Below are positions 55,607-60,153 of a stretch of 64,000 bases of DNA, in pieces. Position numbers and translations under genes: made by a program. Source of the stretch: a plasmid. The notes under the pieces are model-generated. The model was not told the DNA's origin, searched no databases, and saw nothing but the letters and a program-made list of their open reading frames with translations. Numbering within the stretch: position 1 is the first letter of the stretch; each line of letters starts with the position of its first letter. The stretch is from sequence record NZ_CP016173.1. One strand, given 5' to 3'.

Positions 55607-55621
55607 GTAAACAATGCGTAA
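55607..55621. repeat. 15-bp direct repeat, copy 1 (GTAAACAATGCGTAA), forming GTAAAC-N5-GTAAAC with the next 2 nt
   Basis: Perfect 15-mer, identical to 60139-60153. Lies between the coiled-coil gene start and the stop of the next leftward gene. Confidence 0.6.
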
Positions 55622-55622
55622 A

Positions 55623-56225
55623 CTACGCGGCGCCTGACTTCTGCACAACTACCCGCTCTGCGGCCAGCACCGCCTTGTCGGTTGACAAGCCGAATGACGC
55701 CGCGCGGGCGAGTGCAGCTGGCACCCAGTCGGAAAATCGGCTGTCATCCAGCACAGACCGAAGCGCGAGCAAAGGGACGCAGTGTTCGACCGACGCGTCC
55801 ACGTAAAACAGGGCGAACCATTCTGGGATAAGCCACCGCTGGTCGTCATGCTCTTCGATCGAGAACGGAATGGCAAGCAGACCCGGCATGGAGGCAAGCT
55901 TGGGGCTTTGAAACCCTTGGCACAGCCAGTACGCAACCAGGTCCAGCTCACCCGCCTGTATAGGCACTAGCGCGATTACTTGGCGCGAGGTGGAACGGAC
56001 GTAGATCCCTGGCGCCAGTGCAAGGCTCGCGTCCTCGGTCGCCTGATACGGGAGCCTATCCATGAAGTGCCGGAGCAGCCCAAGCATCTCGGCCGCCACG
56101 GGAATGTCCTGGGCGACATGGGGATTCGATTTTCCCCCCATCAGTGCCAGTACAGATCCCGCCTCTGCGGCCTCGGCGACATCAAGCAGGTGCAGCAGCT
56201 CATTACGCATGGGGTTCTCGGTCAT
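55623..56225 (-). CDS. Hypothetical protein
   Basis: About 200 aa from the internal Met (MTENPMRNELL...); 4-bp overlap with the upstream membrane-protein gene. The listed longer ORF is unlikely. Confidence 0.45.
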   Translation of the reverse strand: MTENPMRNELLHLLDVAEAAEAGSVLALMGGKSNPHVAQDIPVAAEMLGLLRHFMDRLPYQATEDASLALAPGIYVRSTSRQVIALVPIQAGELDLVAYWLCQGFQSPKLASMPGLLAIPFSIEEHDDQRWLIPEWFALFYVDASVEHCVPLLALRSVLDDSRFSDWVPAALARAASFGLSTDKAVLAAERVVVQKSGAA

Positions 56226-56731
56226 GCCAACGCGGGATGGTTTCGCAGGCTCAGGGAAACCGCCCAGCGCACGATGAAAGACCAGATGAGCCCTACGACA
56301 AGGGCTGTAGGAACCAAGGCCAAGAACGCCAGGATCCGGTCCTCCATGCTCAGTGCAGACACAAACATGACCGGGCACCACACAAAACAGGCCGTGATGA
56401 TAGGCATAACCAACAGGCGCCGCCCCACGTCGGCGTCGCGGGGGCTCGTCCCCAGGCAGAACCACACGAAGCCCACCATGTAGGCGGGCGAGTATAGGAA
56501 AGCCAGGATGAGATAGGCAAAAGACGCAATGCCAGTGGCTTTCAAGGCGCCTGTGAAATCACTCGGCACGACCTGTTGACCGATGATGGCCGTGGCCACC
56601 ACAAAGGCCATCACAGCGAGGAGGATGGGCAAGGATAGAAGCCATAAGGCGCGGCGCCGGAAGCTGCGCTGAAAAGCCGCATTGCGACCCGTAGTGTATA
56701 TCGTGGAAACGAACTGGCGTTGCGCAAGCAT
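56222..56731 (-). CDS. Polytopic membrane protein (hypothetical)
   Basis: 169 aa with 4 hydrophobic helices. Confidence 0.5.
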   Translation of the reverse strand: MLAQRQFVSTIYTTGRNAAFQRSFRRRALWLLSLPILLAVMAFVVATAIIGQQVVPSDFTGALKATGIASFAYLILAFLYSPAYMVGFVWFCLGTSPRDADVGRRLLVMPIITACFVWCPVMFVSALSMEDRILAFLALVPTALVVGLIWSFIVRWAVSLSLRNHPALA

Positions 56732-56833
56732 GCGGGCCTCGATATGGTTAAAAATGTTTTTCTAACACCCAATTCTAACCAAACCAACAGATTTATTGTG
56801 TTTCCGTAGCAACTTTCTCCGGGGCGGCGCGGC

Positions 56834-56859
56834 AAAAAAAAAGCATCCGGGCAGGATGC
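56834..56859 (-). terminator. Rho-independent terminator (minus strand) downstream of the ParE-like gene
   Basis: On the minus strand this reads GCATCC-TGCCCG-GGATGC followed by TTTTTTTTT. Confidence 0.55.
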
Positions 56860-56982
56860 TTTAAGCGAAAGGGCAACACGTTGGCATGCAGCGCATTGCA
56901 GAGGCACAGCTTACCATGTGGCTTCACCCTCAAAGGCCACTGCGCTGACGCGCTTCGCTTGTCGCCTTGCCAAAGTAGCGCG

Positions 56983-57521: not shown

Positions 57522-57619
57522 GGCAAGCTCCTTGTGTCTCTTCATTTTAAGGCATTCCGGGGATGATAGGGGCCCCCGCTCCCCGGCCTGCATGGAGGTT
57601 TCACGCCATTCTGGGCCAG

Positions 57620-58750
57620 TCAGGGCAGGGCGCCAAGGTTGGCTTGCAGGTCGGCCAATTTCTGGGCATCTTCCTGGCGCTTGCGGTCAATCGTCTTGGC
57701 GTAGATCCGTGTCGTGCGCGGGTCGGCATGCCCTAGCTCGTCTTGGGTCGTTTCAAGCGAGGCTCCCGCTGCCAGGCGGTGGGTGGCATTGGTATGTCGC
57801 ATCCAATGCGTGGTCATTCGCATGACTTGGCTGCGGATGTGCTCATCCGGACAGTCGCCTGCGGCCGATTTTGCCAATTCGTGCACGATCAAGCCGATGG
57901 AGCGAGGCGTCAAGGCCCGCGAACGGGCTCCCACGTTGATTGTCGCCACGAGTGGGATGTTCTCGCCAGGCAGCGGGAAATCTGCCAGGCCCCAGCTTTT
58001 TCGGTAGCGCATGAGCTCCTGCAGCAAGCTGGAATTCACGGCCACCATGCGCTCTTTTTGCCCTTTGCCAATGACGCGCAACAGCCAGCCGCTGTCCGTC
58101 CGTAAGAAATCTCCCATCACGCCGTTGGCCGCTTCTTCACGGCGCAGTCCGGCATGGTAGAGCAGGGCGAATAGCCATCTGGCGCGAGCGGCGACCGCGC
58201 GGTCGCGTGTGCTGCGCTCCGGCCGGTTGCACACCCAATCCCAAAGCCAAAACCAGCTATCGAGGTGCAGAGCTCGTTGCTGCCGCTCCGAACTGATAAC
58301 AGCAGGCTTCATCGACAGCTTGAACACGTTGAATTGCAGATAGCCCGCGTCCTGCAGGTATGAGCACATGCCGCCTAGAATCGTCCTGGTCTGGGCTATC
58401 GAGGCTGATGATAGCGGCGCCGCGAGCACCTGCGTTGGTGCTAGGACAACACCGCGCGGCGGCTTTCGAGGCCGGAGCCAATGAGCTGGAGGATTGGCCA
58501 GGTGGGCGTAGAACAGATGGGCGTGGTCCACCTTCATTTCCTTAAGCGACAGGCCGTTCTCGCCTAGCCACAGCAGTAGCCTGATGGCTTCACGGCGGTA
58601 CGCGTCAAAGGTGTTCGCGGTGCGACTGCCCTTGGCCCTGATCCAGACCGCAGCCGCCTGGGCATCTGTTTGGACGCCCAGGGCATCGCCAACCGCCTGA
58701 TCGGCACCAGGCGCAAGCAAGCGTCCGGGATCCAGTTCGGCCAAATTCAT
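57620..58750 (-). CDS. Tyrosine recombinase / integrase (XerC/D-phage integrase family)
   Basis: 'AGLRREEA' (box I Arg), 'HWMRHTNAT' (HxxR) and 'LGHADPRTTRIYAK' (catalytic Tyr) in canonical order. 376 aa. Confidence 0.85.
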   Translation of the reverse strand: MNLAELDPGRLLAPGADQAVGDALGVQTDAQAAAVWIRAKGSRTANTFDAYRREAIRLLLWLGENGLSLKEMKVDHAHLFYAHLANPPAHWLRPRKPPRGVVLAPTQVLAAPLSSASIAQTRTILGGMCSYLQDAGYLQFNVFKLSMKPAVISSERQQRALHLDSWFWLWDWVCNRPERSTRDRAVAARARWLFALLYHAGLRREEAANGVMGDFLRTDSGWLLRVIGKGQKERMVAVNSSLLQELMRYRKSWGLADFPLPGENIPLVATINVGARSRALTPRSIGLIVHELAKSAAGDCPDEHIRSQVMRMTTHWMRHTNATHRLAAGASLETTQDELGHADPRTTRIYAKTIDRKRQEDAQKLADLQANLGALP

Positions 58751-59001
58751 TGCGTGAGAGTCCAGGTACCATCGGACGAGAGCCGCACGACGGTGGGGGT
58801 GTCAACGCCCTCGATAGTGACTCGAAACCATTCAGCACGACCCGGGACCGTGGGGTCAAGCGCCCAGCTTTGTCCGCGCCCATCCGCTGCCACTGCATGT
58901 TTTGCCAAGGCCGCTGCGGCTTCCTCTCCAGTCAGCGTTTTTTTCTTCATGCTCATCTCCAACAGACCGACATTGCCGCTCATGCGGCCTCGGGTTCCCA
59001 T
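58747..59001 (-). CDS. Small hypothetical protein
   Basis: Upstream of and overlapping the integrase start by 4 bp. The true start is probably the internal Met (MSMKKK...). Confidence 0.35.
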   Translation of the reverse strand: MGTRGRMSGNVGLLEMSMKKKTLTGEEAAAALAKHAVAADGRGQSWALDPTVPGRAEWFRVTIEGVDTPTVVRLSSDGTWTLTQ

Positions 59002-59843
59002 GCTTCGAGCTTCTTTTCTAGAAAAGGGATCTCTCTTTTAAGCCCCGCAATTTCGCCTTCCAATTGAGCCACGTGACGGCGGAACGCCTGGGGCCAGAGC
59101 GGATCATCACGAGTGACCCTTTCGAGAGGTCCGTTGTACATGCGTTTCACGAGCAAAAATTCGGGATGCGTCCCTCGGCTGTCATAGGCACGGGTGGCGG
59201 TCGCAAGTTGCGCGTGCAGGGTCGAGATCAGCCATTCCAGTCCTTCGCTGGAGACCTCAAGTGGCTTGAATTGGATGCCAGGGCAGCTGGCCGTCTGCCA
59301 ACCGGAGCCAGGCCGCTCGTAGCCGTGATGAGCCATGGTTCCTCGCTGCACGGCAATACGGCGGAAGCATACCGGGCAGGTTTTGACGACCTTGTTGGGG
59401 TTCACCGGCTTGGACGGTGCCAGGCTCGGGGCTCGCCCTTTGACCACCTTATTTTTAAGGGACGCAACAGCCTCTGAAAGGGGCAACACCTCGGCGCAGA
59501 AGGTTCGCATCGCGTCCACGGCTGGCCCTGACGCTTTCGACCTGCTGACCTTCTTGCTCGTAGAGATGATGTCGTGCAGCCCCATAACCATGATGCTGTT
59601 GTAGAGCAGCCGCACGTCTTCCGGGTGGGATTCCCATTTTCCATAAAAAAAGGGCTCGCTCACGTGCAGCTTCCACGCCTTGTCGACAATCCGCGAGAGG
59701 GTTTCCTTGGCGTCGCGCCATACGACATTCCGAATGGAGCCTGCCTCCACCCCAGCTAGTACCTGTTCCACAGCCATATCGAACCGACTGGGATCCGCCA
59801 AGGAGTCGCGAAGGATGGGGAACTGCCGTGGAGTCATGAGCAT
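58980..59843 (-). CDS. Hypothetical protein with a Cys/His cluster
   Basis: 287 aa. 'CPVCFRRIAVQRGTMAHHGYERPGSGWQTASCPG' may be a zinc-binding element. Confidence 0.45.
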   Translation of the reverse strand: MLMTPRQFPILRDSLADPSRFDMAVEQVLAGVEAGSIRNVVWRDAKETLSRIVDKAWKLHVSEPFFYGKWESHPEDVRLLYNSIMVMGLHDIISTSKKVSRSKASGPAVDAMRTFCAEVLPLSEAVASLKNKVVKGRAPSLAPSKPVNPNKVVKTCPVCFRRIAVQRGTMAHHGYERPGSGWQTASCPGIQFKPLEVSSEGLEWLISTLHAQLATATRAYDSRGTHPEFLLVKRMYNGPLERVTRDDPLWPQAFRRHVAQLEGEIAGLKREIPFLEKKLEAWEPEAA

Positions 59844-60138
59844 GTCCTTTTTCTAGGCTGGAGCGGAGGGGTCGCATCCCGCTGATTTTGTTCCACGGGA
59901 ATCTCGCGAGTCCGCATCTATCGCTTCAACCCATTGAAAACTAAAAAGCTTTTGGGATTTCATCGACATTGAGGCCGTGGAACATTTTCGTTGTCGGCGA
60001 CCTGCCGCCGACCATCACCCCCGATATTTCCCATAATAACAGTTATGGGAAGAAGAGCGCAAGAGAAGTACCAAAATGAACCATGTACGTTCATATATGT
60101 ATTGACATCGGGCCGGAGCGGGCTCACAATGCCAATAC

Positions 60139-60153
60139 GTAAACAATGCGTAA
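60139..60153. repeat. 15-bp direct repeat, copy 2 (GTAAACAATGCGTAA) in a divergent promoter region
   Basis: Perfect match to 55607-55621. Lies between the start of the leftward gene ending at 59843 and the rightward ORF starting about 60170. Confidence 0.6.

Follow-up and report, generated by a model that had tools for sequence, protein, structure and literature searches.

The subject of this study is a perfect 15-bp direct repeat, GTAAACAATGCGTAA, whose two copies bracket about 4.5 kb of a plasmid (sequence record NZ_CP016173.1), of which a stretch of 64,000 nucleotides, referred to here as the window, was analyzed. We propose that the two 15-mers are very probably the best-conserved parts of two arrays of 11-bp iterons, designated site B (at copy 1) and site A (at copy 2), which would serve as operators for one plasmid-encoded DNA-binding protein. 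An earlier, sequence-only reading of the window had offered two possibilities for this interval, namely a small integrated element with att-like direct repeats, or a pair of operators shared by one regulator. The second is supported by predicted promoters at both sites, by co-varying arrays at both positions in related plasmids, and by the presence of the motif at further promoters. The first was not borne out, in view of the synteny, an integrase of the Xer-like kind, and the lack of both a dyad in the repeat and a tRNA.

The 15-mer has two exact matches within the window, at 55607-55621 and 60139-60153, both on the + strand, in agreement with the count given by the sequence-only reading, and copy 1 does have the layout GTAAAC-N5-GTAAAC described there. 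As for the further copies that it had suggested looking for, neither a third exact 15-mer nor another strong array was found when 82 kb of the plasmid (~118.6 kb in all) were scanned, covering the window, 10 kb to its left and 8 kb to its right; one copy with two mismatches does occur, at 36092-36106.

The length of the repeat is no evidence by itself. Nine exact 15-mers are repeated in the 64-kb window, at ~8 loci, where a naive expectation is ~2, and one exact direct pair is thus at chance level. The signal above chance lies in the 11-bp substructure. Each copy is the core of two tandem 11-bp units, AATRYGTAAAC, arranged head to tail at both loci, and inspection of the sequence revealed no dyad symmetry. 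Tandem Repeats Finder reported an 11-bp tandem at 55602-55623 and 60133-60153, and a repeat search placed four units in a single register (starts at 55602, 55613, 60134 and 60145), with an identity of 18/20 between the loci. The units of site B read AATGTGTAAAC AATGCGTAAAC on the + strand, or GTTTACGCATT GTTTACACATT on the - strand, toward the gene g257, and AATGCGTAAAC is also the iteron consensus of both arrays. The motif AATRYGTAA was counted five times, on the + strand every time, versus 0.65 expected; two motif pairs at 11-bp spacing were observed versus 0.0 in shuffles; and the pairs scored 37 and 34 with a position weight matrix (PWM), for a shuffle maximum of 19.6. Tandem direct repeats of ~10-11 bp, with at least two units in helical phase, are present at both sites and also in the relatives. 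An Rfam scan of 54000-61500 gave no match at E<=1.

The possibility that two unrelated AT-rich promoter regions share 15 bases by coincidence draws on the seven other loci with exact 15-mer repeats in the same 64 kb. It would leave unexplained the identical internal 11-bp tandem structure of the two copies, the absence of such spaced pairs from shuffles, and the orthologous arrays at both positions in five plasmid lineages; we regard it as extremely improbable.

The sequence-only reading had also placed both copies in promoter regions, and this was borne out by a promoter scan at sites A and B (Table 1). Site A begins 3 nt past the -10 of a predicted strong promoter and ends 14 nt before the start codon of g101, and therefore covers the predicted transcription start and the early leader of a rightward operon (g101...p1120...kfrA-like). 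Site B starts at the stop codon of g200 and overlaps by 2 nt with the -35 of the predicted g257 promoter. Two degenerate units in the same register, assigned with lower confidence and partly by eye, occupy the -35 and the spacer of that promoter; with them included, the motif chain runs over 55580-55623. The relatives, too, have units within the spacer. Upstream of their g257 genes, 11-bp arrays are found both upstream of the promoter and within it, and the orthologous promoters read TTGACA-17-TATTAT in Aeromonas, TTGACA-17-TACTAT in P. savastanoi and TTTACA-17-TACAAT in Thauera.

At site A, a 25-bp box, TGTCAATACATATATGAACGTACAT, which includes the -35 hexamer, is found with 0-4/25 mismatches in relatives from Thauera, Pseudomonas, Aeromonas and Xanthomonas (L003, L004, L005, L006, L008 and L085). 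It is conserved at seven loci in five plasmid lineages, the proteins of which are merely ~40-75% identical, and every such locus has 2-4 tandem 11-bp units between the -10 and the first start codon. Because the box gives a positional anchor, the arrays of site A can be taken as orthologous across the family.

Were the interval a nested element, the two 15-mers would be attL and attR of a 4.5-kb insertion, integrated and excisable by its internal tyrosine integrase (Int). As in att-bounded integrative elements, perfect 15-bp direct repeats do surround a tyrosine recombinase and a toxin-antitoxin pair, and the gene content reported by the sequence-only reading is correct, with seven genes between the repeats, all leftward. 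Unlike those of att-bounded elements, however, the boundaries here are off any synteny break. The order in relatives is the kfrA operon, a divergent intergenic region, the operon that includes Int, and then g169, g200, g257 and DotA, with other genes between g169 and g200 and between g257 and DotA. The order Int-g169-g200-g257-DotA is conserved in the relatives from Thauera, Pseudomonas, Aeromonas and Xanthomonas, and Int-g169-g200-g257 are contiguous in Thauera (L005). The pair g200|g257 and the block Int-g169-g200 are each uninterrupted in L003, L004, L005 and L085. Given this conserved order, both copies are in conserved places, copy 1 within the g200|g257 junction and copy 2 in the divergent region; g200, which would be inside the element, and g257, which would be outside, are neighbours in every relative examined. 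No empty site was found, since all three assemblies with the flanking g257 also carry the segment. Moreover, relatives have different repeats at those positions and different genes in between.

The integrase itself argues in the same direction. Its orthologues occupy the same syntenic place in at least 14 plasmids of five genera, with 43-66% identity on ~105-200-kb plasmids of Aeromonas, Pseudomonas savastanoi/syringae, Xanthomonas, Yersinia and Serratia, and 59-75% identity on plasmid-sized contigs of metagenome-assembled genomes. The best matches are XerC, XerD and XerA, and the match is confined to the catalytic and core-binding regions. Int is a Xer-like, conserved backbone gene, not linked to the repeats, from either of which it is 1.4-2 kb away. 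Since Int is devoid of an arm-binding domain, we also rejected arm-type integrase sites as the identity of the repeats. The repeat resembles a binding-site array and not a crossover core, in that it has no inverted recombinase-binding sites; a tRNA scan found no tRNA that could be a target; and the 15-mer pair is, as noted above, at chance level in the window. We thus find a nested element hardly credible.

Compared with the closest relative, from Thauera (L005), the sole real indel inside the interval is the ParDE cassette, an invasin gene being an indel outside it. The insertion, with a PaaA2/RelB-type antitoxin and ParE, extends over 56732-57619, is absent between Int and g169 in the Thauera plasmid, and ends at positions that bear no relation to the 15-mers. 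Apart from this one ParDE cassette, the 4.5 kb bracketed by the repeats is ordinary plasmid backbone, and it is not a mobile element. A false lead is thereby removed, there being no small integrative element nested in the plasmid, and a testable cis-regulatory map takes its place.

Among the relatives, conservation of the arrays is positional and structural, not a matter of sequence identity: the 15-mer, searched with up to 3 mismatches, had no match in them. The unit type is ACGCATT in the window and in Thauera, CCACAAT in P. savastanoi and Aeromonas, and CACCATG in Xanthomonas. Within each plasmid, sites A and B share the unit type, always on the same strand. The numbers of 7-mers common to the two sites within plasmids are 10, 8, 4, 1 and 2, whereas across unit types they are ~0; on the reverse strand they are mostly 0 and at most 3. 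Agreement within plasmids combined with difference between them reads, at the level of sequence comparison, as the signature of one specific DNA-binding protein that has co-evolved with its sites.

The motif is also found elsewhere. In the complete P. savastanoi plasmid, the core MCACAVT forms 22 pairs at 11-bp phase, versus 0.03 in shuffles, all of which are intergenic. This plasmid has seven array sites, each of 2 to ~18 units; in addition to those near dotD, icmT-parM and repA (Table 1), arrays are located upstream of the dotI operon and at sites A and B. In Aeromonas, ~20 units are found upstream of dotD and ~14 directly upstream of icmT-parM (L096, 4460-4610). The 9-20-unit arrays of the relatives near dotD and icmT-parM look like parC centromeres.

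In the window, the counterpart in position of the relatives' largest arrays is site C, three weaker units that overlap a promoter-like site upstream of dotD and hold the 2-mismatch copy of the 15-mer. The triple scores 18.2, where shuffles reach at most 12.1. The parC-like arrays have their positional counterpart in site D, which is marginal, lies upstream of icmT-parM and is accompanied by more degenerate units from ~39019. Degenerate ANTGYGT units also occur at the dotD and icmT-parM positions in closer relatives, those in which the ParR-like protein introduced below is 72-85% identical. Two other intergenic pairs, at 3054 (-) and 34043 (+), have PWM scores inside the shuffle range. Regarding sensitivity, the PWM derived from the strong units was too narrow to pick up the degenerate arrays near parM and dotD, and a scan for lag-11 autocorrelation lacked sensitivity and recovered just one array. 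A search of 82 kb did not turn up the largest array of the window's own plasmid. Altogether, one motif recurs at three or more promoters, in varying numbers of units, together with a large array, with seven sites in P. savastanoi and two strong plus two weak ones in the window. The promoters that carry members of this 11-bp iteron family are those of the kfrA operon, g257, the dotD operon and icmT-parM.

Repeats that are short, direct and dispersed could also be iterons of the RepA_C initiator, placed at promoters for copy-number coupling or handcuffing, and one P. savastanoi array does lie ~1.4 kb from repA. Yet the largest arrays adjoin dotD and parM, not repA. An 11-bp unit is short for Rep iterons, and a better candidate for these is another motif, CGATGAAATACCAA, four of which are located at 3146-3280 beside repA. 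We consider the assignment of the arrays to RepA_C very unlikely. The motif CGATGAAATACCAA is itself dispersed, with four exact and four 1-mismatch copies (3146-3280, 10832, 24908, 34326 on the - strand and 59952 on the - strand). The cluster of four is intergenic, between a ligase gene and rdgC, ~2 kb from repA, and suggests Rep iterons or oriV. One copy is found inside the divergent region between the kfrA operon and the Int operon.

Which protein would bind the 11-bp arrays? The leading candidate is a 71-aa ParR-like protein encoded directly after parM, although we would give it slightly less than an even chance; a KfrA-like protein follows at a distinctly lower probability, and the remainder falls to another protein. 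We infer binding by the ParR-like protein from several features. The 71-aa open reading frame (ORF) is conserved in the plasmid family. Its N-terminal segment reads RFILLLD in P. savastanoi and Aeromonas (unit type CCACAAT), RNILFLD in Xanthomonas (CACCATG) and RTGVLLA in the window (ACGCATT). Over its whole length, Aeromonas is 68.6% identical to P. savastanoi and 51.0% to Xanthomonas. The flanking genes show the opposite trend, with the corresponding values being ~71% and ~77% for ParM, 51% and 60% for the 205-aa protein RHH205, and 67% and 78% for DotB. Both the N-terminus and the overall identity of the ParR-like protein therefore appear, in this small sample, to group by unit type, opposite to the flanking genes. 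An AlphaFold2 model of the monomer, with a disordered N-terminus, two helices and a predicted local distance difference test (pLDDT) score of 73, is compatible with a ribbon-helix-helix fold.

Several points weigh against the operator reading or against this binder. First, only four or five plasmids underlie the co-variation, in which phylogeny is a confounder. Second, the scan for arrays was confined to 82 kb of plasmid sequence, with 36.6 kb and the chromosome outside it. Third, the arrays proximal to parM and dotD are the weakest here, with site D scoring 9.9, inside the shuffle range, and the strongest are 15-20 kb away, which is unusual for a ParR. Fourth, the ParR-like protein had no match in Foldseek (using the AlphaFold2 model), Pfam, NCBIfam or PDB sequence searches. 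Fifth, the kfrA-like gene is the sole gene of the site A operon kept in all relatives, g101 being absent from them, which makes its product a serious alternative; and in plasmid RA3 the kfrA promoter carries five 9-nt direct repeats to which KfrA itself binds (PMC7783346).

According to this alternative, a KfrA-like protein, composed of a helix-turn-helix N-terminus and a coiled coil, would bind the arrays, autorepress its own operon and co-regulate g257, the coiled-coil product of which could be a KfrC-like partner. A KfrA_N domain is recognized by Pfam (1e-5, 26.6 bits for a cut-off of 26.1), short direct repeats do lie on the promoter of the KfrA_N-encoding operon at site A, and in RA3 repression is set by repeat number and orientation (PMC7783346). 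In addition, the N-terminal identities of KfrA pair the window with Thauera and P. savastanoi with Aeromonas, like the unit types. This grouping, however, matches that of the neighbours g200 and g257 and hence is no independent evidence; a KfrA-N phylogeny was accordingly dropped as a discriminator. It also counts against KfrA that the units vary from plasmid to plasmid, whereas the helix-turn-helix region of KfrA (PSWTxIRDIIGKGSxxDINRAK) is near-invariant; such a domain is better matched by the 25-bp box, which is invariant as well. Within the box is TGTATTG, identical to the first 7 nt of the RA3 repeat, and the box resembles the TACGTACATATA repeats upstream of kfrA on Yersinia p153kb, a monocistronic gene that is preceded by box-like repeats but not by 11-bp arrays. 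For these reasons, the box fits KfrA better than the arrays do, and it may be a KfrA operator. Finally, the RA3 motif is found once per plasmid and at the kfrA promoter, in contrast to the up to 7 array sites seen here, the largest of which are by parM and dotD, and the relatives have arrays at g257, dotD, parM, dotI and near rep. KfrA as the protein that reads the arrays is, on this evidence, unlikely.

Two further proteins were considered and rejected as binder or regulator. The 205-aa protein is a poorer fit, as its N-terminal segment (ERFEIRLR) is almost invariant despite the differing unit types; it had no Pfam, NCBIfam or PDB sequence match, and its assignment as ribbon-helix-helix was made by eye from the sequence pattern. 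Its gene (40633-41250) follows that of the ParR-like protein, encodes a long Pro/Ala-rich tail, and is kept family-wide, including in Yersinia. The other, g101, is missing from relatives that retain the arrays.

Returning to the operator reading, the mechanism we envisage is one of cooperative binding, with one dimer per 11-bp unit, along one face of the helix. With at least two phased units occupied, RNA polymerase would be blocked, over the transcription start and the early leader in the case of site A, and over the -35 and the spacer of the g257 promoter in that of site B. The outcome would be joint repression of the kfrA operon and g257, alongside the partition and transfer operons. If the binder is the ParR-like protein, sites A and B would be satellite operators of an actin-type partition system.

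The closest precedent is plasmid R1, where parC has a set of five 11-bp direct repeats on either side of the par promoter and is both operator and centromere, bound cooperatively by ParR at one dimer per iteron (PMC2241845). As in R1, head-to-tail 11-bp direct repeats lie over a promoter here, in what would be operator positions; parM is followed by a small gene; and in relatives arrays of 9-20 units are found upstream of (icmT-)parM. The differences are also clear. The arrays here are spread over several promoters rather than gathered in one parC, sites A and B have only two strong units each and are 15-20 kb from parM, no match to known ParR in sequence or fold could be detected for the ParR-like protein, and parM is embedded in an operon of the type IV secretion system (T4SS; dotD-traI-dotB-icmT-parM).

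The second precedent is KfrA with its operator O_K on the IncU plasmid RA3, which likewise has short direct repeats on the promoter of an operon encoding KfrA_N and coiled-coil domains, and in which the coiled-coil partner KfrC is encoded nearby (PMC7783346). The RA3 units are 9 nt long, contiguous, in both orientations and present once in the plasmid, whereas those described here are 11 bp long, run in one direction and occur at several loci. Another difference is that the kfrA gene is here up to 6 kb downstream of the promoter.

Regulation of many promoters through one dispersed motif has its own precedents. Protein omega of pSM19035 acts on heptad arrays at three promoters, with 7-bp units and a ParA-type ATPase as partner, and KorB of RK2 is a ParB with 13-bp palindromes and twelve O_B sites. 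Like these, the present system has one motif in variable copy number at several maintenance and transfer promoters, plus a possible centromere array; unlike in these, the partner would be the actin-type ParM. Multi-promoter regulons are familiar to us for ParB- and omega-type centromere-binding proteins, and we know of none for type II ParR/ParM systems.

The kind of element is thus already known, namely an iteron operator of a plasmid partition or maintenance protein, and the plasmid family is unstudied. We raise, tentatively and as more doubtful than the choice of binder, the possibility that the ParR-like adaptor of the ParM system is a plasmid-wide transcriptional regulator. Through dispersed arrays of 2 to ~20 units, it would couple the centromere to the kfrA scaffold operon, the coiled-coil partner gene and the Dot/Icm transfer operons, across a plasmid family of Bordetella, Xanthomonas, the Pseudomonas syringae group, Aeromonas and relatives. 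A multi-promoter regulon of a type II ParR would, if confirmed, be of modest novelty. The family comprises ~105-200 kb Dot/Icm-type plasmids of plant and animal pathogens, in which the control of maintenance and transfer is unstudied. If a single partition protein reads all the sites, segregation, the KfrA scaffold and the conjugation genes would be joined in one circuit, and the unit types would predict partition incompatibility groups within the family.

The window belongs to a conjugative plasmid with a Dot/Icm-type (MPF_I) transfer system, as its gene set includes RepA_C, a shufflon-type PilV, a type IV pilus, DotD, TraI, DotB, IcmT, ParM, DotM and DotA. Identical DNA is present in the NCBI contig CBCSCL010000020.1 (118,710 bp), a protein of which is assigned to Bordetella flabilis by one source, and in two Logan assemblies. 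The ends of that contig overlap by 119 bp inside the window, at 58921-59039, an assembly junction that the window spans; the plasmid is therefore a circle of ~118.6 kb. At the nucleotide level (Megablast), neither the region nor the T4SS backbone had a match in PLSDB or in E. coli genomes, and protein-level searches were therefore required.

Table 1. Positions of the arrays, promoters and genes discussed (window coordinates unless a P. savastanoi plasmid is named)
Feature	Position	Strand	Remarks
Site A	60134-60155	+	two tandem 11-bp units AATACGTAAAC AATGCGTAAGC; includes 15-mer copy 2 (60139-60153)
Predicted strong promoter at site A	60102-60130	+	TTGACA-17-CACAAT, 10/12 (promoter scan)
Conserved 25-bp box	60083-60107	-	includes the -35 hexamer
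Site B	55602-55623	-	two strong tandem 11-bp units; includes 15-mer copy 1 (55607-55621)
Two degenerate units, same 11-bp register	55580-55601	-	AACGCCGCACA CTATCCGCAGT; lower confidence, partly by eye
Predicted sigma-70 promoter of g257	55575-55603	-	TTAACG-17-TACAAT (promoter scan)
Site C	36087-36119	+	three weaker in-register units AGAGCGTAAAC ATTGCGTCATA ATGGCGTGAGC
Site D	39109-39141	+	marginal array upstream of icmT-parM, ATAGTGTCAAG AGTGTGTAATC ...; low confidence here
P. savastanoi array by dotD	127-324		~18 units
P. savastanoi array upstream of icmT-parM	108829-108925		~9 units
P. savastanoi array near repA	20927-20981		~1.4 kb from repA
RepA_C replication protein	1-1185		
parM, actin-type partition ATPase	39455-40462	+	
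ParR-like 71-aa protein	40464-40679	+	starts 2 nt after parM; BOFL111202_17610
g257, coiled-coil protein	54769-55542	-	conserved backbone gene; downstream of site B
g200	55623-56225	-	inside the interval
g169, 169-aa membrane protein	56222-56731	-	
Antitoxin + ParE cassette	56983-57593	-	
ParE toxin	56983-57276	-	
PaaA2/RelB-type antitoxin	57309-57521	-	
Tyrosine recombinase (Int), Xer-like	57620-58750	-	
g78	58747-58983	-	
g285	58980-59837	-	
g101	60170-60475	+	first gene of the operon behind site A
kfrA-like gene	equivalent of ~65612-66610		past the end of the window

In the divergent region, upstream of the Int operon, an inverted repeat, CCCATAATAACAGTTATGGG, is present at 60030-60049, with a -10-like TATTAT on the - strand. 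P. savastanoi has at the same position a different but equally palindromic sequence, TTCACATTATTGGTATAATGTGAA, and the compensatory changes between the two suggest a putative second operator.

Between DotA and g257, the window carries an inverse-autotransporter (intimin/invasin-like) gene and an EAL-domain gene, at 51889-54594 and 51047-51724, respectively. The invasin gene is probably cargo, because it is missing from the Thauera relative. The shufflon-type PilV (Shufflon_N) is encoded at 8075-9376, and no Rci-like recombinase was recognisable among the scanned ORFs neighbouring it. At 34358-35503 lies a 381-aa ORF without a Pfam or NCBIfam match, at a place where relatives annotate a 'site-specific integrase'. 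To the right of the window, downstream of the kfrA-like gene, are FlhD-family, DUF6283, H-NS-family and ArdC-like genes (L091, 14953-19352); in relatives, the DUF6283 gene is located directly upstream of Int.

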